DNA from: a virus
DNA length: 24,343 bases
UHGV virus genome: UHGV-0344763
Strand: one strand, 5' to 3'
Below the pieces are notes generated by a model. It saw only the letters and a program-made list of their open reading frames with translations. It was not told the DNA's origin and did not search any database. Shown here in pieces: positions 934 through 21,734 of the stretch (positions are counted from its first letter, which is position 1; every line of letters starts with the position of its first letter). Both the position numbers and the translations under genes were made by a program.

Positions 934-1526
934 TGAAACCTGTTTTTGATGAAAATGGGCTGGCTACAGTGCCGGGTGATATGCGTTGTTTTTATTATGA
1001 TGCAGTAACGTCTGAATATACGGGCTGGTCTGATGAATATATTAATACTGGCGTAAGTATGCCCGCCTGTTCCACTGGTATTGACCCGGGCGAATACATT
1101 CCGGGGAAAGTGGCAGTATTTACGGGTAAGGGATGGAGCCATGAAGAAGACCACCGCAATGAGACTGTTTACTCAACCGAAAATGGCGCAGCTGTTACAG
1201 TGGATTATATCGGTGCCATCAAAAACGGTTATGTCACGCTTTCACCGTTAACGCCATATGATAAATGGGATGGTGAGAAATGGGTGACAGATACTGAGGC
1301 ACAGCATAACGCCGCAGTAGAAGCAGCAGAAGCACAGCGCCAGTCACTGATTGATGCTGCAATGGCTTCCATCAGCCTGATTCAGCTGAAATTACAGGCC
1401 GGGCGGAAGCTGACGCAGGCAGAAACCACCCGGCTTAACGCCGTGCTTGATTACATTGACGCGGTGACGGCAACAGACACGAGCACCGCGCCGGATGTCA
1501 TCTGGCCTGAACTGCCGGAGGCGTAG
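933..1526 (+). CDS. Tail fiber assembly protein (Tfa), silent inverted copy
   Basis: 197 aa; C-terminal conserved Tfa motif DYIDAVTATDTSTAPDVIWPELPEA; start overlaps the stop of the upstream fiber segment. Confidence 0.8.
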   Translation: MKPVFDENGLATVPGDMRCFYYDAVTSEYTGWSDEYINTGVSMPACSTGIDPGEYIPGKVAVFTGKGWSHEEDHRNETVYSTENGAAVTVDYIGAIKNGYVTLSPLTPYDKWDGEKWVTDTEAQHNAAVEAAEAQRQSLIDAAMASISLIQLKLQAGRKLTQAETTRLNAVLDYIDAVTATDTSTAPDVIWPELPEA

Positions 1527-1938
1527 GCCATTCAATATCTGGAGCACCGGAAGTATCGACCAGTTCCAGTGCGTCCAGATAATCCAGCCACAAATTATAT
1601 TGCGCCAGTTCCTCACCTTTCAGACGACCAATAGCTGCTTTACCAGGCCATTGCTTACTGTTTATGTATGCGTTGGCCTTATTAATCAATTGCTGCTTTT
1701 GCAATTCCGCTGCTGCAATCTGTTCTTCATGTGTTGGTGGTGGAATATCAATCCATGCTGGCATTCCGTCGATGACACCTCTGTATTTTCCTTCTGGTAC
1801 TTCCTTCATAAATTCAGCGGCAACAGTGTCGTCAATTTCGATTCCATCATCAGGCCATTTCCCCGCTTCCTGATAAGCAATTTTAAGCTCCACAGGGAAA
1901 AACGCATTTTTATCAGCACTGAAAATATATTTCTGCAT
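1498..1938 (-). CDS. Tail fiber assembly protein (Tfa), expressed orientation
   Basis: 146 aa; C-terminal ...[26 protein letters not shown]; immediately downstream of the fiber gene; its 3-prime end converges on and overlaps the plus-strand tfa. Confidence 0.85.
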   Translation of the reverse strand: MQKYIFSADKNAFFPVELKIAYQEAGKWPDDGIEIDDTVAAEFMKEVPEGKYRGVIDGMPAWIDIPPPTHEEQIAAAELQKQQLINKANAYINSKQWPGKAAIGRLKGEELAQYNLWLDYLDALELVDTSGAPDIEWPTPPAVQAR

Positions 1939-1940
1939 TT

Positions 1941-2588
1941 CTACCGTCCTATCGAAATATAACTGAATCTGTATTGTTGAGAGATATCACTGATTGCCAC
2001 GCGCCACGCTGAATTACTGATATGTTCAAAATTTACAGATAAAACCAGCGGTGCAGGATTCGACGGTTCTGACTGAACGGCATCAGACATGACACTGACT
2101 GAAACAAGCGGTTGATTAGGGAATGGTATAGGGAAGTGTCCACTGATAATGCGGGTCGTGTTCCCTGAAAAAGTGCCAAACTGAACAATATATCCACCTG
2201 GTAGCCTGAACCATCCCGAACCAGAAGCGAATGCTCCCATATCCGGTATCTGATTATCTCCTGTGCCCACATCCCTTTTCGCCGCTTCTCCCAAACCAAG
2301 GTTTTCGAGAGCCGTTTTCACCGTGCCATCCGATTTGATATCGCCAAACGGATTCTTGCGGCTTAACAGCAGCGCACGAAGCGCGGTAAGCAGCTGGTCA
2401 TGCCGCCCCTTCTCCAGGCTGGCACCGGATGCCTCCACCACGCTGCAGAGTTCTTCCTGCAACATATCAAAGTAGTCATCATCCAGATCGGTGGCAGGCG
2501 TGCCGGTCTGGGGGTTACCACGGGTAAAACCGTTCTTACCCGCGCCGAACTTATCCTTCTGCGCGGTTTTCGTGTCTATGCGATGCAT
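1941..2588 (-). CDS. Tail fiber protein (short, e14/Mu-S-like), with a constant N-terminal part of ~92 codons joined to a variable C-terminal segment
   Basis: 215 aa; last gene of the baseplate operon; putative crossover site at codon ~92; C-terminal part shows fiber-tip composition (G/S/N-rich). Confidence 0.8.
2284..2311. promoter_or_regulatory. Candidate invertase crossover site (gix/hix-like), right, inside the fiber gene
   Basis: ttctcccaaaccaaggttttcgagag resembles hixL-type sites (TTCTTGAAAACCAAGGTTTTTGATAA, from memory) and is an inverted repeat of the site at ~457-480. Confidence 0.55.
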
Positions 2589-2591
2589 GGA

Positions 2592-3176
2592 TTACTCCGG
2601 ATATTTAAAAATTACGTAGGTATGCGACGGGCAGAGTTTGTTAAGCACACACTCGACAACGGTGTCGCCCCAGATACGCAGTGCGGAATCACAGGGATCG
2701 CCACATGTCATCCAGGTGGTGTTGGTGGCGGCTGGCATGTTGACCTGCCAGTAATACCGCCATTCCGGCGCATTCACCGCGTCAGTACAGGCCGATGAGC
2801 AGGTGAACGTGCTTTTGTCGTATCGAGTGATGGTGGCGTCTGGTCTGCCCAGGGCAGCAAGCTGTGCAAGGTAAAAATCCTCATTGATGCCGCCCGCCAG
2901 GTTAACCTTCGCATCCAGTCGTTGCTGACGCTGGCGAAGGGTCTGTGTCCCTGCGGGAATACATTCATCCGGCAGGCCGCACAGACGCTCCCAGCGATTT
3001 ATCAGTTCGGTGGTGGTGCGCGGATCCAGCTCCCGCATCAGGGCATCCGCACGCTGATGAACGCGGGTTAATGACGGTGCCGCACCGGCAATCGCCGGAT
3101 CGCTGGCTGACCACGCCGGACCGGGGGGCAACAGTGCCGACAACAGACGGATGTAATCATCGTTTGTCACGTCCAT
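2592..3176 (-). CDS. Tail/baseplate protein, Mu gp48-like (YmfQ/DUF2313-type)
   Basis: 194 aa, between baseplate J-like protein and tail fiber; family assignment by position and recollection of e14/Mu-like modules. Confidence 0.7.
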
Positions 3177-13931: not shown

Positions 13932-15137
13932 TTACGCCGCTGCAATCTTCAGCAGTTTGATGGCCTGCGAATCTACCAGCATCCCGCCGGTGCGCTTGGT
14001 GGTATAAAAACCGACAAACGGTTTATTGGTGTACGGATCACGCAGAATGCGGGTGCCGATACGGTCAACGATGGTGTAACCCCGTTTGAAGTTACCAAAT
14101 GCAATGGCTTTCGCATCAGCGGCGATATCCGGCATCTGTTCGTTTTCAGCGATACCGTAACCCGCCAGAGAGGACGGCTGCCCCAGTTCCAGCCCCGGAC
14201 GCCACAGATAGTTACCCTCGGTGTCTTTCAGCAGACGGATGGCAAACAGGCTGTTGTTGTTCATCATGAACTTCGCGCCAGTGCGGTGTGCCTTACGCAG
14301 CGTGTAAATCAGTTTGATAATGGCGTCTGCGGTCACCGCCGTCGCGTCGCCGGATACAATATGCTGAAGTTTGCCGAACGCCCGGACCTTGTCGGTTTCA
14401 TCCGTGGATTCATACGCCAGGAACCCTTTCGGCTTCTTGGTACCATCGCCGGTGGTAAAGGCAATTTCTTCCTGTTCGGCAAATTCGGTTGCCAGCTCGC
14501 TGTTGATCCAGGCCTCCACGTTGAAAAAGGCATCATCCAGCATTTTCTGGGTGGCCTGCGGGTTACCGTAGATTTCCCCCATGAAAGGTTCAATCAGCCC
14601 CAGTTTTGAGGTGGCAGTCTGGGAGCGCGCGTCAGTCTCGCCAACCCATCCGGAAGCCGTGCCGCCCAGATTCACCAGTTTTTTGTAGTCGGAACCACCA
14701 ACGGTGATCACCGTGGCTTCCTGACGCATCACCACTTCATCTTTCAGCAGGTTAAGAATGTTGCGATCCAGTTCTTCCGGCACGGCGTAGCCACCGTCTT
14801 CATCGGTGCCCACCTGCAATGCCTTACGCTCCAGATCGCGCAGACCGTCTTCACGGCCTTTACGCAGGAAGCCCACAAACGCCTCTTTATGCTCGGTGGC
14901 CAGTTTATTTTGCGCACCACCTGCCGGACGTTTCAGCTCAAGCAGCTCTTTTTCAAGATCGCTTTTGAGGTTTTCCAGCTCGCTGAGTTTCCCGTTCAGG
15001 GTTTCCACCTGCCCGGCAAGTTTGCCTTTTTCCTGCTCAATCGCATCCACGCGCTTGTCGTTCTTTGCTTTGAAGTCGTCAAACTTCTGCTGCAGCTCCT
15101 GCGCGACCTGTTCGACATCTTTAATATCAACCGCCAT
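13932..15137 (-). CDS. Major capsid protein, HK97 family
   Basis: 401 aa; coiled-coil-like N-terminal delta region followed by capsid domain; follows the prohead protease. Confidence 0.9.
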   Translation of the reverse strand: MAVDIKDVEQVAQELQQKFDDFKAKNDKRVDAIEQEKGKLAGQVETLNGKLSELENLKSDLEKELLELKRPAGGAQNKLATEHKEAFVGFLRKGREDGLRDLERKALQVGTDEDGGYAVPEELDRNILNLLKDEVVMRQEATVITVGGSDYKKLVNLGGTASGWVGETDARSQTATSKLGLIEPFMGEIYGNPQATQKMLDDAFFNVEAWINSELATEFAEQEEIAFTTGDGTKKPKGFLAYESTDETDKVRAFGKLQHIVSGDATAVTADAIIKLIYTLRKAHRTGAKFMMNNNSLFAIRLLKDTEGNYLWRPGLELGQPSSLAGYGIAENEQMPDIAADAKAIAFGNFKRGYTIVDRIGTRILRDPYTNKPFVGFYTTKRTGGMLVDSQAIKLLKIAAA

Positions 15138-15151
15138 CGTATTTCTCCTGA

Positions 15152-15838
15152 TTAGAAGTTCAGATTTTTCAGTGCATTCAGTGCAGAGCCCACATCCTCA
15201 GCGTCGCGCAGGGACAGTGCGCCATAGCCCCCGGCCATGAATGCTTTGGCCTGGGTACGGGAGAGTCCGACATCACGCAGGACTCTTTCGATTTTTTTCT
15301 GTTCGGGGATTTCCCCGCGGGCCAGTGCGTTCTTGACGTCGCTGATCCGCGCCTCGTCGTTAGACGGGAATGTCACCAGACTGACTTCCCAGAGGTCGAT
15401 TTCTTTCAGCAGAAAGGCTTCTTTCGTCCGGTCGTATTCCCAGTCCTTCAGGACGTACCCAATAGAAAGGCCGGTTAACGAACCGGCCTTCATGTGTGCA
15501 TGTGCGCGTTTTGCCAGGGGATCATCATCAATGAGCAACCGCCCCCTGACGTAAAGCCCGACATCGTCTTCCTTCATTTCGGTGTAAACACCGATGGGCT
15601 CATCCATGCGGTGCTGCCAGAGCAGCGCAGGTAACGCTTTTCTGTCACTCCACGCCCGCAGGGAAGCAGCAAATGCCCCGGACATCACCACATCATCGTG
15701 GCTGTCCTTTACACCAAAGACGGAGCCATACCCTTCAAACTCACCGGAGTCACTGACAGATTTCAGACTCAGCGGTACATCAAGACGTTGTTTCGTCTGC
15801 ATTGGCGTTATCCTTCTGCTTACCGGCTTTACTGCCAT
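15152..15838 (-). CDS. Prohead protease, HK97 family
   Basis: 228 aa between portal and major capsid genes; true start may be the internal Met (MQTKQRL...). Confidence 0.85.
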   Translation of the reverse strand: MAVKPVSRRITPMQTKQRLDVPLSLKSVSDSGEFEGYGSVFGVKDSHDDVVMSGAFAASLRAWSDRKALPALLWQHRMDEPIGVYTEMKEDDVGLYVRGRLLIDDDPLAKRAHAHMKAGSLTGLSIGYVLKDWEYDRTKEAFLLKEIDLWEVSLVTFPSNDEARISDVKNALARGEIPEQKKIERVLRDVGLSRTQAKAFMAGGYGALSLRDAEDVGSALNALKNLNF

Positions 15839-17021
15839 CGGAGGGTTTCGTGGTCATGTTCATCGGTGTGAGATAGACATCCCCACCGGGACGCGGATTC
15901 ATATCTTCCAGGTCGCGGCAGTCATTGGGAGAGTAAATTCCCCAGTTAATCCCGGTGGCGTAGGCTTCAAAACGGGACTTCATATCCCCGCGCAGTAACG
16001 CCCCGGCGTTAAATTTGGCGTAATAAACGCCCTGCTTACTTTTTCGTACCAGTCCGGTGTTGATCCGCTGTTCGATGCGGGTCAGATACGGCACCAGTGA
16101 ATAGTTGATAAATCCCAGCCCCAGCTCTTCGATATTGTTGAAGGTGGCGCGATCGGTGTTCTGCACCATGTGCAACGGCACCCGGAACAGACGACAGATT
16201 TCTTCAAGCTGAAACTTGCGGGTTTCCAGGAACTGGCTGTCCTCGGCGTTCAGCGCCATCGACTTCCAGTCCAGCCCCATCTCAAGGATCATCGGGCGGT
16301 GAGCATTGCCAAGTCCGGTGTGACGCTCCTCAAAATCTTTCTTCAGGCGCTCATAAGCCTGATCTGACAGCGTCTGCTCTGTACGCAACACACCCGACGT
16401 CACCGCGCCATTGCTGAACAGTCTGGCCCCGTGCTCTTCGGTCGCTGCCGCCAGCGATATTGCCTCGCGGGCATAGGCGATGGGATTCAGCCCCACCAGT
16501 CCGTCCAGCGTCAGCGTGCGCACATGCCAGATATCCTCCTGGCTCAGTACATCCGTGGAGCCATCCGGGAATGTGACCTGATAGACCGGCTCCCAGCTAC
16601 TGTTAAGCTTCGGTACCACACAGCCGGGATCGACGGGCAGCAGTTCAGCCACTTCGCCAAATGCTTTCACTTTGTAGGCGTAAAAGTTTCCCCGCAGGCA
16701 CAGACAGGTGACCACCAGCTCCCAGAACTCCTGCGGCGTCATATAGCCATTGGGATGCGTGGAGATCAGCTTATGCAGACGTTCGCCAGTGGCTCTCTGC
16801 TTCAGGCTGCCGTTCAGGTGATACAGGTTGCAGGGCAACATCCCGACCGACTCCGCCAGCACCCTGACACAGGAAAAAACCGCCGTCAGTCGCATGGCCC
16901 GCTGGCTGCTGATCTGCTTTCCGGTATAGGTGTCGTAGGACAACCCGATAGCATCCGCCAGCTCTGCTGGCGTGGTCATCGGTGCGTCACTTTTTCGTTG
17001 AAATAATCCCGAAAAAAACAC
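15780..17021 (-). CDS. Portal protein, HK97 family
   Basis: 413 aa; GTG start at 17021 preceded by GGAGG (an ATG at ~16979 is an alternative start). Confidence 0.9.
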   Translation of the reverse strand: MFFSGLFQRKSDAPMTTPAELADAIGLSYDTYTGKQISSQRAMRLTAVFSCVRVLAESVGMLPCNLYHLNGSLKQRATGERLHKLISTHPNGYMTPQEFWELVVTCLCLRGNFYAYKVKAFGEVAELLPVDPGCVVPKLNSSWEPVYQVTFPDGSTDVLSQEDIWHVRTLTLDGLVGLNPIAYAREAISLAAATEEHGARLFSNGAVTSGVLRTEQTLSDQAYERLKKDFEERHTGLGNAHRPMILEMGLDWKSMALNAEDSQFLETRKFQLEEICRLFRVPLHMVQNTDRATFNNIEELGLGFINYSLVPYLTRIEQRINTGLVRKSKQGVYYAKFNAGALLRGDMKSRFEAYATGINWGIYSPNDCRDLEDMNPRPGGDVYLTPMNMTTKPSDGSKAGKQKDNANADETTS

Positions 17022-17203
17022 TATTTACCTCCGCCGACAGACGACTGTGTACGCTCAAGATATCGCGCCACCAGCCACGACCAGAACAGGCACAACGCCC
17101 CGGCAACAACAAACCCCGCCGGGGGATAAATCAGCCAGGCACCATACGCCAGCAAAAGCGCCCCCAGCACGCCCACCAGAGGCGCGAGAATCAGCATGAT
17201 CAT
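17021..17203 (-). CDS. Small hydrophobic membrane protein (two predicted TM helices)
   Basis: 60 aa [55 protein letters not shown]...; ATG preceded by GAGGT; stop overlaps the portal GTG start; wedged between terminase and portal. Confidence 0.55.
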
Positions 17204-17214
17204 AATTACCTCAG

Positions 17215-18948
17215 TTAAAGCGAGCGGATCCCATAGGACTCAATGTGGTCAGACAACGTGTCTTCTTTCTCGTACAGCATGGCTCTGCCAACCGCCATAA
17301 TCAGCGCAACTGCACCATCGATTTTGTTTTCCGCCTGCTCTTTGACGGGCTTCACCACATCATCGTTACCCGGAATGGTTTTGCCGACCACGTTGCCGAT
17401 ACACCAGGTCATGATGGGATTGCCATCATGATGAAAGCGCCCCGATTCAATTGCCGCTTCCAGCTCTTTCATCGGGTCGGACATGTTGGTGTAGTTCTGA
17501 ATGATAGTGATGGGGTTCAGGTCTTCATCAGCAAGGTCATGTGACAACCCGGTCGCCCCGAAGGGGTCGATGGGTGACTCACTGACCGGGCTGATTTTGT
17601 TCGCCGCTTTGGCCTCCTCGAGGATGTAGCGATAATCCACCTCCGCACCATCGGTAACGGTCAGAACGCCCATTTCCACCCATTTCTGAAAGCGTTCGGC
17701 TGTCCGGCGATCTTCATTTTTCTCGACGCTGTACACCGTGTCATACGGTACCCAGAAACGCGGGGCCACACTGTAGTAATGCGTTTTACCGTCAATCTCG
17801 CGGGTATAAAGTCGCGCCATGCTGTTCATATCCAGCTTACGCGCCAGGTCAAAGGCCAGAATGCACGGCTGCCCCTCGAACTGCTCAAGGGTCAGTGATT
17901 TATCCTCGCAGCTCTGCCAGCTCACCAGGTTGAAATACGCCGAACGCGCCGACACCCAGATATTGAGGTGCTTTGTTTTAAAGACGTTTGCCAGACGGGC
18001 GTTATTTTTCGCACGCTGCTGCTGACTTAACAAAAATTCGCGATAAACCGACACGCCAATATTCGGGTTAGCTTTTTCCAGCACCTGCGGGTCGGTCCAG
18101 TCATCGCCTTCGTCAACGGTATAGATGATCCCGAACAGTTCATCATTGGGTACCGACCCGTTGAGCATCTCGATAACTTCCCGCCGCTTGTCGTAGCACG
18201 GCCCCTCAATGTTGTACCCGGCAGTAGTAATGGCCCACATCAGTGGCTGACGTCGCGCCCCCATCCCGGTAAGCATCGTGGTGTAAAGCGCATCGGTGGC
18301 GTGCTCGTGATATTCATCCACCACCGCACAGTGGGGTGATGATCCATCACCGGGGTTACCGATCAGCGGTTCAAACCGCGCGCCATCCTCCGGACGGTTC
18401 ATGTTTGAGGCGTTAACCTCAATCCCGAACGCTTCCGTCAGCATGGGCGTGCGTTTACACATCAGTCGCGCCGGGCGAAAGACTTCCCACGCCTGTTTCT
18501 CTGTCGTGGCACCGGAATACACTTCCGCGCCAAACTCGTTATCACAGGCAAAACAATACAGGGCGACACCGGCAGAGATTGCCGATTTGCCGTTCTTACG
18601 GGGGATTTCGGTATACACCTCCCGGAAGCGGCGCAGCCGGGAGCCTTTATTGACCCAGCCAAACGCACAGCAGATCACAAAGAGCTGCCACGGCTCCAGC
18701 GTGATGGGCATCCTCTTGAATGCCCACTCACCCTTGGTGTGCGGCAACAGCTGAATAAATTTGGCGGCCCGTTCAGCCAGGTCCTTGTCGAAGCGGTAAC
18801 GAAACGACTTACTTTTTTCCGCCATCAGGTCATCAAGATGGCGCTGGCAGGCCTGAATCACAAACTGGCAGGCCACAATCTTTCCGCGAACGACATCCCG
18901 GGCATACTGATTGGCAGCATTTACGTTGGGGTAAGATTTCCGGCTCAT
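17215..18948 (-). CDS. Terminase large subunit
   Basis: 577 aa; Walker A-like IPRKNGKS; ATGA overlap with the small subunit gene. Confidence 0.9.
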
Positions 18949-19448
18949 GATTCGATGATTTTCAGAAACGGGTTAGTAGCTTTCTTCTGCCCCGCCAGGC
19001 CAATCAGACGCTGGCGGCTGCTGGGGTCGAGTCCGAGCATTGCCCCCGTGCTGCTCATCTCGGACTCCTGTTCTTTTTTGGCGGTCAGCTCAGGATTTTT
19101 GACCATACCGCCCATTGCACCGGTGATGGTGTTGCCCTGTCTGGCAATATTTTTCACGGCACGTCGCCAGAACTCATAGGCCACACACCACCGCTCAAGC
19201 ACCGCGAGGTCAGTCACGCACAGCAGGCCCTGACCGCAAAGTTCTTTAGTTGTCAGTTGCCACATGATCGTGGCGAGAGGGAGATCTTCTTCAGCGAACC
19301 ACTCCGGTGGCTCAACACCTTTGATGGGCGTAAAAACAGGTTCATCTTTATTCAGGGCTCGCTTGCCGGGGTTTCCGGCCAGCGCCTTGCGCGCCGTTGG
19401 CTTGGGGCGACGCCCGGAACGCCCCGCCGTTCCAGCCATATGCGGCAC
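18945..19448 (-). CDS. Terminase small subunit (P27 family)
   Basis: 167 aa; basic N-terminus; directly upstream of the large terminase gene and downstream of HNH/cos region. Confidence 0.85.
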
Positions 19449-19564: not shown

Positions 19565-19915
19565 TCACTTTAACCGTTCACGGGCCGTCTTCGCCTTATG
19601 GCAGGGCCAGCACAGACTCTGCAGATTACTGTCGGCATCAGTGCCGCCATGCGCTTTAGGGATGATGTGGTCAACGGTTTTCGCCTCACGCACCACACCG
19701 GCACGCAGACATAACTGACACAGACCTTTGTCACGCTTCAGAACACGCGCGCGGATACTGTCCCACTTCGAACCGTAGCCGCGCTGATGACGGGATTGTC
19801 CAGGTTTGTATTGCTTCCAGCCTTCGCTTTTGTGGCTTTCGCAGTAGCCTGAAGGGTCAGTAGTGGTATGGCGGCAGCCGCGAACACGGCAGGCTTTCGG
19901 GGTTCGTGGCGGCAT
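19565..19915 (-). CDS. HNH endonuclease (packaging-associated)
   Basis: 116 aa; Cys-rich N-terminus and the H-N-H core (DHIIPKAHGGTDADSNLQSLCWPCH). Confidence 0.85.
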   Translation of the reverse strand: MPPRTPKACRVRGCRHTTTDPSGYCESHKSEGWKQYKPGQSRHQRGYGSKWDSIRARVLKRDKGLCQLCLRAGVVREAKTVDHIIPKAHGGTDADSNLQSLCWPCHKAKTARERLK

Positions 19916-20007: not shown

Positions 20008-20328
20008 CTAAATCAGATCACCAATGTATTTTGCACTAATTGAAATTTGCATCTGAGGCATTCCGACCACAGATCCATTTAACAGGTAATCACGTCCTCG
20101 TTCCTGCAAAGAAAGACTCAATTCAAAGTTCTTTACCCCAGGGAAAACCGAGGTGACATTTAAATCATGCTGCGATACGCGCAGAATAAGTTGGCTACCG
20201 TCAATTTTTCCCTGATACGTAAAACCAAAATCTCCGCCGTTTACTGCATTGTTTTTGACAACTACGGTACCATTACCAAAATCACGTTGATTGCTTCTGA
20301 AAACAACAAAATAGATACCATCTTTCAT
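20008..20328 (-). CDS. Hypothetical protein, low-GC moron between lysis cassette and HNH/cos
   Basis: 106 aa, no signal peptide; markedly AT-rich compared with flanking phage genes; AT-rich upstream region with promoter-like hexamers; own terminator. Confidence 0.7.
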   Translation of the reverse strand: MKDGIYFVVFRSNQRDFGNGTVVVKNNAVNGGDFGFTYQGKIDGSQLILRVSQHDLNVTSVFPGVKNFELSLSLQERGRDYLLNGSVVGMPQMQISISAKYIGDLI

Positions 20329-20420: not shown

Positions 20421-20690
20421 TCATTTTTTTTGCATGATGTGACCACGCTCAACTTCAATCCTTCTGATGTCAGCTTTATCGGTATTACACTGCGCCAATG
20501 CAGACAACAAGGCGACATTCAGATCTAAGCTCGAGCCCCACGTAAAATGATCAGGTAAATCAGGCTGAGGGGTTTCAGCCGTCAGGCTGGCTGGTAACGG
20601 AACTACCGGAACCTGGACGTAAACTGTTCGCGTACTTCCGCAACCGGTCAGCAGCGGCAGCAGGCACAGGACGTGAAGCACAATCATCAT
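20421..20690 (-). CDS. Rz1-like o-spanin (outer-membrane lipoprotein)
   Basis: Internal start MMIVLHVLCLLPLLTGCGS... with lipobox LTGC and Pro-rich mature part; begins inside Rz in another frame and extends past its stop. Start codon choice uncertain. Confidence 0.6.
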   Translation of the reverse strand: MMIVLHVLCLLPLLTGCGSTRTVYVQVPVVPLPASLTAETPQPDLPDHFTWGSSLDLNVALLSALAQCNTDKADIRRIEVERGHIMQKK

Positions 20691-20967
20691 CCGCAACAGC
20701 CACTTTGATATCTTCCTGGGTTCTCTGTGACTCCAGTGCGATCTGCTGTTTTGCATGCTGGTTAGCCTCTATAACTGTATTGATGATTTGCAGTGATTGC
20801 AGGACGTTACTGGTAATGGCTGTTGCAGATTCAGCATTTCGTACAGCCTCATCAGCACGCTCCTTTTCGTGTTGATATTTGCTGTAGTAATGCCCGGCAG
20901 ACCAGATAAAAGAACCGATGACGGTAACAAAGAAGGCAACAATAACCAGCTTATATCTCAGCTTCAT
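20575..20967 (-). CDS. Rz-like i-spanin
   Basis: 130 aa; N-terminal TM helix (LVIVAFFVTVIGSFIW) then charged helical region; immediately downstream of endolysin. Confidence 0.7.
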   Translation of the reverse strand: MKLRYKLVIVAFFVTVIGSFIWSAGHYYSKYQHEKERADEAVRNAESATAITSNVLQSLQIINTVIEANQHAKQQIALESQRTQEDIKVAVADDDCASRPVPAAAADRLRKYANSLRPGSGSSVTSQPDG

Positions 20968-21427
20968 TTACCACCCCACCAGCTTCTTTAAATCGGGAAA
21001 TCAGGTCACCGATTCTATGTTCATACTGACCGTAACCTGCACCAGGTAACGACGCCCAGATATTGCTGCAACGGTCGATTGCCTGACGAATATCGCCGCG
21101 GTCAATCATCGGTAAAGCGCCACGCTCTTTAATCTGCTGCAGCGCTACAGCATCCTGACTTTCTGGAGAAAAATCTTTCAGACCAAGTTGCTTGCGGTAG
21201 GAATCCCACCAGCGAGAAAGAAGCTGGTAACGTCCGGCGGCTGTTGATTTGAGTTTTGGGTTTAGCGTGACAAGTTTGCGAGGGTGATCGGAGTAATCAG
21301 TGAATAGCTCTCCGCCTACAATGACGTCATAACCATGATTTCTGGTTTTCTGACGTCCGTTATCAGTTCCCTCCGACCACGCCAGCATATCGAGGAACGC
21401 CTTACGTTGATTATTGATTTCTACCAT
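20951..21427 (-). CDS. R: Endolysin R (lambda-type lytic transglycosylase)
   Basis: 158 aa, [39 protein letters not shown]... closely matches my recollection of lambda R. Confidence 0.9.
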
Positions 21428-21734
21428 CTTCTACTCCGGCTTTTTTAGCAGCGAAGCGTTTGATAAGCGAACCAATCGAGTCAGTACCGATGTAGCCGAT
21501 AAACACGCTCGTTATATAAGCGAGATTGCTACTTAGTCCGGCGAAGTCGAGAAGGTCACGAATGAACCAGGCGATAATGGCGCACATCGTTGCGTCGATT
21601 ACTGTTTTTGTAAACGCACCGCCATTATATCTGCCGCGAAGGTACGCCATTGCAAACGCAAGGATTGCCCCGATGCCTTGTTCCTTTGCCGCGAGAATGG
21701 CGGCCAACAGGTCATGTTTTTCTGGCATCTTCAT
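21411..21734 (-). CDS. S: Holin S (class I, lambda S107/S105 type with MKM dual start)
   Basis: 107 aa, [39 protein letters not shown]... matches lambda S as I recall it; three TM segments. Confidence 0.9.

Follow-up and report, generated by a model that had tools for sequence, protein, structure and literature searches.

A conserved small membrane-protein gene, ymfR, lies between the large terminase and portal genes of an HK97-type head operon and is linked to the portal

The window analyzed here, a 24,343-nucleotide stretch of the viral genome UHGV-0344763, contains a small ORF with its own Shine-Dalgarno (SD) sequence between the genes for the large terminase subunit (TerL) and the portal protein (Table 1). 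An earlier note on this DNA had described such a 60-residue ORF, although it left the strand unspecified, and the coordinates determined here bear out the description. The ATG of the ORF is located 11 nt past the TAA stop codon of TerL, and the GAGG core of its SD sequence is unchanged in 10 homologues, the proteins of which are only 58-98% identical. At the downstream end, the TAG stop codon and the GTG start codon of the portal gene have one base in common, as the note had also read from the sequence. Since relatives carry an ATG at the equivalent site and share the N-terminal portal sequence MFF[SP]G[LM]F from the overlapping start codon onward, the overlapping GTG is the true portal start. 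The portal protein of the window shares 32% identity with HK97 gp3, and gp6-like connector and head-closure genes are already present in the head module. The gene order is TerS-TerL-YmfR-portal-protease-capsid, and the small gene, ymfR, forms an integral part of the late head operon as one of its cistrons.

Table 1. Features at the TerL-portal junction and the lysis cassette of the window
Feature	Position	Strand	Basis or remark
ymfR homologue, 60 aa, ATG start	17021..17203	minus	ORF list, sequence, phrog_502, dN/dS, AlphaFold2
ymfR Shine-Dalgarno GAGGT, 4 nt 5' of ATG	17208..17212	minus	GAGG core invariant across homologues
Portal Shine-Dalgarno GGAGG, inside the last ymfR codons (GGC GGA GGT AAA TAG)	17028..17032	minus	sequence
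TAGTG overlap: ymfR TAG 17023..17021 and portal GTG 17021..17019	17019..17023	minus	sequence
TerL, large terminase subunit, 577 aa, TAA stop	17215..18948	minus	PF03354 and PF20441
HK97-type portal protein, 413 aa, GTG start	15780..17021	minus	PF04860, E=4e-108
Terminator-like hairpin within helix-1 codons, judged non-functional	17158..17185	minus	window scan; labelled 'terminator' in SfII
Lysis cassette: S holin (PF05106, class I), putative endolysin, Rz-like and Rz1-like genes	20421..21734		about 3.2 kb away

The window protein is identical to YmfR of the e14 prophage of E. coli K-12 at 59 of 60 positions (98%) and matches phrog_502 ('membrane protein') with E=8.6e-28; all 45 diverse family members tested match the same group, which PHROGs assigns to the category 'moron, auxiliary metabolic gene and host takeover'. 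A 'protein YmfR' is named by PGAP/RefSeq in 1366 of 5426 complete E. coli genomes, and homologues are annotated in SfII (SfII_03), ST64B (sb3/Sb3), phiP27 (L37) and SfI, those of SfII, ST64B and phiP27 as putative membrane proteins. Judged by its sequence, the 60-residue ORF is the prophage gene ymfR, a genuine, conserved and already named gene. Already listed among the K-12 y-genes and carried by roughly one in four complete E. coli genomes, it adds no new element. In e14, ymfR likewise lies between TerL and the portal gene, with equal length and the same stop/start overlap; however, both flanking genes are truncated pseudogenes there, while ymfR itself is intact, whereas the head module of the window is apparently intact. 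Several public records would benefit from correction. SfV contains an unannotated homologue of the small protein, and its portal start is probably misplaced; the ymfR-type ORF of SfIV is likewise left unannotated, and the SfII record shows a spurious 'terminator' feature inside its ymfR homologue. The labels 'gpW' or head-tail joining protein W on the homologues of vB_EcoM-720R4, 689R6, 606R7 and As1 are annotation errors.

Scans of the YmfR protein against Pfam (E<=0.01), NCBIfam and PADLOC (E<=1) returned no family; when 45 diverse members were compared with Pfam, only assorted two-helix DUFs came up, all below threshold. A profile search of the PDB found no structural relative. Full-text literature searches retrieved gene lists and no functional study of ymfR; the gene is mentioned in deletion lists, in a table of SOS/e14 induction and in an ASKA screen of uncharacterized membrane proteins, where it was included in the first round and dropped in the second.

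The coding frame, the loss of which in related phages had been named in the earlier note as grounds for dismissing the gene, is conserved. Across the helices dN/dS ranges from 0.07 to 0.38, with values of 0.11-0.22 in pairs with dS of 0.8-1.8 (near saturation), while the tail is close to neutral, and the length of the protein is steady at 59-61 aa across Enterobacterales. The low helix dN/dS and the constant length indicate more than a chance ORF, and on these substitution rates YmfR is under purifying selection at the amino-acid level. The two hydrophobic helices proposed previously are upheld by a mean Kyte-Doolittle hydropathy of 2.35 (residues 2-25) and 1.99 (residues 29-46), and by an AlphaFold2 model (pLDDT 76) of a generic helical hairpin (H2-25 and H27-56). 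A tight YPPAG turn joins the two predicted transmembrane helices, and the conserved core of the family, as defined in alignments A1 and A2, is present in the window protein. N-terminal extensions in the family contain 189 K/R versus 37 D/E, and the turn region is poor in charge (13 K/R and 13 D/E across 105 proteins). The charge distribution and the model point to an N-in/C-in topology with both termini in the cytoplasm, which would place the turn on the periplasmic side. The cytoplasmic parts would be the only regions of YmfR able to touch a soluble portal.

The helix faces are enriched in Gly, Ala and Ser, and the pattern of conservation suggests that selection acts on these small-residue-rich membrane faces and on the turn, and not on the cytoplasmic tail. 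In five family representatives the hairpin is duplicated in tandem; given such natural tandem-fused dimers, YmfR hairpins probably self-associate.

Within the otherwise variable tail, the C-terminal GG[EKD] is kept. The embedded portal SD accounts for this motif, and the SD and the stop/start overlap are the most widely conserved nucleotide features of the gene, as would be expected if ymfR were a translational-coupling spacer, the translation of which delivers ribosomes or tunes portal dosage while the peptide has no function. We regard this explanation as very improbable, because the purifying selection on amino acids holds in the pairs with near-saturated dS, the motif of the family is kept across families that are only ~30-50% identical overall, and HK97 couples its portal gene straight to TerL by a TGATG overlap, with no spacer gene.

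To assess how widely this arrangement occurs, only the small protein, and neither TerL nor the portal, was used to retrieve loci. The profile search yielded 368 clusters at 50% identity, nearly all of 45-80 aa. Among 22 diverse loci, the downstream ORF was a PF04860 portal in 18 and the upstream ORF was TerL in 16; where the neighbor did not match, it is mostly a short ORF on a contig that is fragmented or frameshifted, apart from one locus (L096) with a 226-aa inserted gene immediately upstream of the small ORF. Loci in alpha- and gammaproteobacterial genomes, compared by the order and size of their ORFs, mostly agree in both. A 1-nt stop/start overlap (TAGTG, TGATG or TAATG) is found at 75 of 84 distinct loci and an SD-like motif before the portal start at 67 of them, which supports the coupling of the small membrane peptide to portal translation that had been postulated for the window. 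The position is kept beside portals that are only 22-34% identical to the reference portal (SfV), and the small ORF occurs with both sheathed and non-contractile tails. A scan of IMG/VR with alignment A1 recovered only loci of 98-100% identity, which shows abundance and not diversity, and tblastn against cultured phages retrieved only 20 close records, as the low-complexity filter masks helix 1.

YmfR thus belongs, as far as profile matches and gene order show, to a large family of small proteins with no Pfam entry that holds its site directly before the PF04860 portal across very divergent phages. The view that HK97-like heads mostly have no gene at this junction was not confirmed; in HK97 itself nothing is encoded between TerL and the portal, but a family of 368 clusters occupies the site elsewhere. 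Nor is the gene unexpected, having long been annotated as ymfR, sb3, L37 or SfII_03 in an arrangement that recurs in phages of Alpha- and Gammaproteobacteria.

The association of the small protein with its two neighbors is not symmetrical. Its identity correlates with that of the portal with a Spearman coefficient of 0.90, compared with 0.77 for TerL. SfV and the window share 96% identity in TerL, but only 29% in the portal and 29% in the small protein, while phi467 and L138 are 39% identical to the window in TerL, but 86% in the portal and 83% in the small protein. The small ORF also abuts the portal gene both in L096, with its extra gene after TerL, and in L183, where TerL is degraded. These comparisons of sequence and gene order show that in inheritance YmfR follows the portal and not TerL. 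One locus (L016) looked like an exception, with TerL and the small ORF unchanged but seemingly another portal; it was rejected, since a deletion there has joined the N-terminus of the portal to the C-terminus of the capsid protein. No fusion of the hairpin to a portal was found among the best 150 family representatives. The tight linkage could stem merely from the overlapping start codon and the embedded SD, with no need for physical contact between the two proteins.

The earlier note had suggested a superinfection-exclusion factor, in which case the hairpin in the inner membrane would block incoming phage DNA or alter a host membrane protein, like HK97 gp15 or T4 Imm. YmfR is indeed a small predicted inner-membrane protein and is dispensable, given that HK97 has no homologue, and its conservation in the membrane and in the periplasmic turn suits the binding of a host membrane component or of an ejection apparatus. 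Its filing among morons and host takeover genes in PHROGs and its persistence between two pseudogenes in e14 point in the same direction. However, the anatomy of ymfR does not favour superinfection exclusion. With only 11 nt before the gene and a 1-nt overlap after it, neither a promoter nor a terminator would fit; the 2 promoter-like sites found do not exceed the number in shuffles (0.7 +/- 0.9), and none lies near ymfR. The SfII-type hairpin is not conserved, and the GC content of ymfR (0.54-0.58) shows no anomaly against TerL and portal (0.51-0.63). No match to known exclusion or defence families was obtained with PADLOC, Pfam or NCBIfam. Exclusion genes follow lysogeny or tail modules, unlike ymfR, which shows deep synteny with divergent portals and both tail types. 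In K-12, SOS induction raises ymfR expression by log2 4.5 along with that of the rest of e14 (PMC10012262). We therefore do not think that YmfR is a lysogen-expressed moron, and an exclusion function is considered unlikely. As for the hairpin annotated as a terminator in SfII, 64% of the cells pair across 10 homologues compared with 65% after shuffling, with no compensatory changes, and it was rejected as a functional element.

A role in lysis was also considered, in which YmfR oligomers would depolarize the membrane late in infection or tune the triggering of the S-type holin. The size of the protein, its N-in/C-in two-helix topology, the Gly/Ala/Ser-rich helix faces, the tandem-fused forms that suggest oligomerization and the location in a late operon all resemble what is expected of a pinholin. 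Nevertheless, a complete lysis cassette is found elsewhere in the window, and a further locus with the small ORF (L086) has its own holins and endolysin. ymfR is never located beside an endolysin gene, but always at the TerL-portal junction, and its product has no significant Pfam holin match. The 'MIM' start is not a conserved dual start either, as only the close SfII/e14-type proteins begin with MIM and distant relatives with MIL or MFL. Such a function appears improbable, more so than exclusion.

The labels in several GenBank records would make YmfR the head-tail joining protein W, and ymfR does occupy the same position as lambda W, between terminase A and portal B. Lambda gpW is a soluble head-completion protein. 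YmfR, by contrast, is a predicted integral-membrane hairpin rather than a soluble alpha/beta protein, and neither gpW nor any other Pfam family is matched at E<=0.01. In addition, the portal is of the PF04860 and not of the lambda type, and the connector and head-closure functions are already provided in the module. The label is already contradicted, and there is next to no chance that it is correct.

The reading that we favor is that YmfR assists the portal/head module from the inner membrane, as an oligomeric accessory factor that is not essential. Its synthesis would take place late in the lytic cycle and be coupled to that of the portal, and the protein could for example supply a membrane site that organizes portal rings, or prohead initiation and packaging, in a manner analogous to T4, where the portal initiator gp20 is membrane-bound and dependent on gp40 (PMC9958956). 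We assign this mechanism as a whole a low probability of roughly 0.3. The conservation pattern argues against a role at the portal, since it is highest in the membrane and the periplasmic turn and the cytoplasmic parts are short and variable. Furthermore, no requirement for the membrane is known for HK97-type portals. As HK97 and other phages with PF04860 portals assemble without such a gene, YmfR would be dispensable for the basic pathway. The idea of a membrane-targeting factor, also raised in the earlier note, is plausible but unproven.

A broader and more speculative extension, which we consider rather unlikely as it stands, is that the YmfR family is a hitherto unrecognized and widespread component of HK97-type head modules. 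The hairpin would form oligomers in the inner membrane, be synthesized in parallel with the portal, and anchor or organize the initiation of portal rings or proheads, or else packaging, at the cytoplasmic membrane. If this were true, membrane-bound initiation of the T4 type would extend to many temperate phages of Proteobacteria. Our analysis shows that YmfR is no oddity of e14, and probably no moron either, but part of a family whose tie to the portal gene holds in highly divergent phages. Its role could turn out to be in a membrane step of HK97-type head assembly, or else that of a new late-expressed membrane effector.

Compared with known systems, YmfR resembles HK97 gp15-type morons and exclusion proteins in being a small inner-membrane protein encoded among late structural genes. 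Morons, however, have their own promoter and terminator, often deviate in GC content and occur sporadically, whereas YmfR lacks all of these traits and its synteny with the portal runs deep. Class II holins and pinholins such as S21 are likewise small N-in/C-in proteins of two helices with small-residue faces, but YmfR lies outside the lysis cassette, with neither a conserved dual start nor a holin match in Pfam. With lambda gpW it shares small gene size and an equivalent position, and no sequence similarity was found. The likeness to T4 gp40/gp20 is functional only: T4 encodes a factor without which the portal is not assembled at the inner membrane (PMC9958956), while YmfR is predicted to be embedded in the membrane and is genetically coupled to the portal. 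The portal family and capsid lineage of T4 differ from those of the window, and a sequence relationship between the two is not expected.

The ORF at the terminase-portal junction lies on the minus strand within the head module. Directly after the TerL stop codon the window reads C-T-GAGGT-AATT-ATG, leading into the ORF, whose 3' end is GGC GGA GGT AAA TAG TG; the GGAGG of the portal gene thus falls within its final codons, and one G is common to its TAG and the portal GTG. The portal N-terminus is conserved starting at this overlapping codon, where relatives use ATG; this speaks for GTG as the portal start codon in the window. The earlier note had described an ORF with its own GAGGT and a stop overlapping the portal GTG, and this was accurate, the strand having been left unstated.

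Location of ymfR, the surrounding genes and related features
Feature	Record	Location	Strand	Remark
HNH gene	window	19915..19565	-	head module, first listed
TerS	window	19448..18945	-	head module, precedes TerL
TerL	window	18948..17215	-	TAA stop 17217..17215
ymfR ORF	window	17203..17021	-	60 aa
Terminator-like hairpin	window	17158..17185	-	inside ymfR coding region; SfII record 2370..2419, 'putative rho-independent terminator'
HK97-type portal	window	17021..15780	-	GTG start
S78 prohead protease	window	15838..15152	-	after portal
Major capsid protein	window	15137..13932	-	after protease
158-aa ORF	window	20951..21427	-	endolysin position, between S holin and Rz-like gene
106-aa ORF	window	20008..20328	-	between lysis cassette and HNH gene
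SfV two-helix ORF	U82619.2	2289..2450		53 aa; 2282..2443 in fetched locus L003
Inserted ORF	L096	2722..3402		226 aa
e14 ymfR and flanks	L191 (K-12 MG1655)	1390..3127		ymfR intact (60 aa), terminase and portal truncated pseudogenes
ymfR ORF of SfIV	KC814930 / NC_022749	2382..2483		97% identity, no annotated feature

The gene already bears the name ymfR, so as a feature it is not new. The window protein is identical to K-12 YmfR at 59 of 60 residues, and megablast found the locus in 1366 of 5426 complete E. coli genomes, with the RefSeq name 'ymfR: protein YmfR'. In K-12 MG1655 the gene resides in the cryptic prophage e14, in agreement with the published order oweE-aaaE-ymfR-beeE-jayE (PMC12956098, PMC11541549); its intactness between two truncated neighbours could reflect retention, or merely chance, given how small a target it is. 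Near-identical DNA is present in several phages, in which the ORF is labelled SfII_03, 'putative integral membrane protein' (SfII), sb3 (ST64B), L37 (phiP27), hypothetical or membrane protein (SfI), putative integral membrane protein or membrane protein (118970_sal3) and hypothetical protein (phi467). Four GenBank matches (ON470603, ON470584, ON470580 and PQ793804; H1, H2, H19 and H10) label the homologue 'head-tail joining protein W', apparently on account of where the gene lies, between terminase and portal. An identity with gpW was rejected, since no Pfam match supports the label and YmfR is an integral membrane protein. The 1764-bp record OR844959.1 (H18, H34), 'Enterococcus phage Efm 3-10', names a phage of Enterococcus faecium as its source, yet is 95% identical to the enterobacterial TerL-ymfR-portal region, which is likely due to contamination or mislabelling. 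YmfR matched the PHROG family phrog_502, 'membrane protein' (E=8.6e-28), while no family was found in Pfam, NCBIfam or PADLOC and no relative of solved structure in a PDB profile search. The literature on ymfR comprises only deletion lists, a table showing log2 4.5 induction along with other e14 genes under SOS (PMC10012262) and a screen of uncharacterised membrane-protein clones, where ymfR features in the first round (PMC10299036), with no function reported.

The ymfR ORF is a real gene. A protein database search matched 165 proteins at E <= 0.001, nearly all of 59-61 aa and from Enterobacterales, the most distant being 58% identical. Their alignment shows hardly any variation in the two hydrophobic segments and the YPPAG turn (near-invariant positions P8, G11, G14, G21, W23, G30, G35, C38, W41 and S42). 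Nei-Gojobori dN/dS over codons 1-47 was 0.07-0.38, and 0.11-0.22 for pairs with dS of 0.8-1.8; coding frame and length are both conserved. The 12-residue tail is close to neutral and variable apart from a terminal GG[EKD], which is the portal Shine-Dalgarno sequence seen at the protein level; the GAGG upstream of ymfR is invariant across the 10 homologues compared. A mere coupling spacer was rejected on account of the purifying selection on the peptide sequence. The hairpin annotated as a terminator in SfII was likewise discarded, as 64% of cells were paired compared with 65% in shuffles, without compensatory changes.

Searching the enterobacterial profile against 1.84 billion cluster representatives yielded 368 clusters at E <= 0.001, nearly all of 45-80 aa with a common core ending in ....AR, and phrog_502 was matched by 45/45 diverse members tested. 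Loci were collected from IMG/VR and from Alpha- and Gammaproteobacteria genomes, with a few from Ruminococcaceae MAGs of uncertain binning; since they were fetched via the small protein alone, the sampling was blind to gene context. The downstream ORF was a PF04860 portal in 18 of 22 loci and the upstream ORF TerL in 16 of 22, the non-matching neighbours being mostly short ORFs on fragmented contigs. The portals at these loci are 22-34% identical to that of SfV. Among 84 distinct loci, 75 have a one-base overlap between the stop of the small ORF and the portal start (TAGTG, TGATG or TAATG), and 67 of the 84 have a Shine-Dalgarno-like motif inside the small ORF's 3' end; more distant members additionally share an ATGA overlap between the TerL stop and the start of the small ORF. 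The Ruminococcaceae loci L173-L175 (GC 0.62), on contigs binned to Firmicutes MAGs, show the same arrangement of TerL-size, small and portal-size ORFs; either the family reaches monoderm hosts or these contigs are mis-binned.

SfV itself carries an unannotated two-helix ORF (MKSLIADVIGLAGFGLLTCGVYLQFGMAPALILSGALLLVGALAMARRGTRAA), distantly homologous to YmfR (family HMM E=9e-7), in what was formerly taken as a 100-nt gap. Since this ORF overlaps both the TerL stop (ATGA) and the portal start as annotated, the SfV portal probably begins at GTG 2433 and not at 2385. The earlier note had considered this junction usually gene-free in HK97-like heads, which is true only in part: in HK97 gp2 and gp3 overlap directly without such a gene, but SfV and the loci of the wider family have one.

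By sequence comparison, ymfR goes with the portal and not with the terminase. In a set of 99 non-redundant loci, the Spearman correlation of identity in the small protein was 0.90 with that of the portal and 0.77 with that of TerL. Discordant cases are the telling ones: identity to the window is 96% for TerL, 29% for the portal and 29% for the small protein in SfV, and 39%, 86% and 83%, respectively, in L138, a locus with a phi467-type TerL. The small ORF still abuts the portal in L096, where a gene is inserted behind TerL, and in L183, which has a degraded TerL and an intervening hydrolase gene. The L096 insert lacks a Pfam match and occurs in one metagenomic phage lineage. The ymfR-carrying head module is found with a sheathed tail (window) and a non-contractile tail (L086). 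The one apparent exception to portal linkage, the defective prophage L016 (IMGVR_UViG_2547132269_000002), was dismissed: TerL and ymfR are intact there, and an in-frame deletion has joined portal residues 1-116 to a C-terminal portion of the major capsid protein.

The two hydrophobic helices of the earlier note were recovered, with mean hydropathies of 2.35 and 1.99 and an AlphaFold2 helical hairpin (H2-25 and H27-56, pLDDT 76). N-terminal extensions of distant members contain 189 K/R and 37 D/E, while the turn has few charged residues (13 K/R and 13 D/E in 105 proteins); by the positive-inside rule, YmfR would have an N-in/C-in topology, its YPPAG turn lying at the periplasmic face. Both helices carry conserved small residues at approximately heptad intervals (G11, G14/A15, G21 on helix 1; G30, A34/G35, C38, S42 on helix 2), which suggests tight helix packing. 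Five representatives (P0156, P0184, P0186, P0202 and P0257; 100-122 aa) consist of two tandem YmfR-type hairpins and look like natural fused dimers, suggesting that the hairpin units associate in parallel.

That YmfR is the phage's holin was rejected because the window already encodes a holin of S type (PF05106), along with a putative endolysin and Rz-like and Rz1/LysC-like genes, all downstream of a Q antiterminator; a pinholin-like or lysis-timing role for YmfR appears improbable. The 158-aa ORF in the endolysin position has no Pfam match at E<=0.001. The 106-aa ORF beside the cassette, which may be a cargo or moron gene, hits Pfam GrlR (T3SS negative regulator; E=6.6e-6, 26.7 bits vs cutoff 26.8). 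For ymfR a classical moron was rejected, as its flanks are too short to hold a promoter or terminator; promoter-like sites were not enriched in a scan, with none adjacent to the gene, and its GC content is unremarkable. Superinfection exclusion, as proposed in the earlier note, or host-membrane modulation is an unlikely role, and the remaining probability falls to something else.

Our analysis establishes that ymfR belongs to the late operon, is coupled to portal translation and inherited together with the portal, and encodes a membrane hairpin whose intramembrane and periplasmic parts are under selection. The original observation is confirmed, and its interpretation is supported in part. The most economical reading is that YmfR may serve the portal/head module as a non-essential inner-membrane accessory that self-associates. 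We give this a probability of about 0.3, because the conserved surface does not face the cytoplasm, HK97 does without such a gene and the portal linkage could merely follow from the overlapping start. The interest that remains lies in a named y-gene being part of a large family of small proteins coupled to the portal, whose role simple genetics could resolve. As such an accessory, YmfR hairpins could supply a site on the membrane where portal or prohead assembly is initiated or packaging takes place, much as in T4, in which the membrane-bound gp20 initiator depends on gp40 (PMC9958956).
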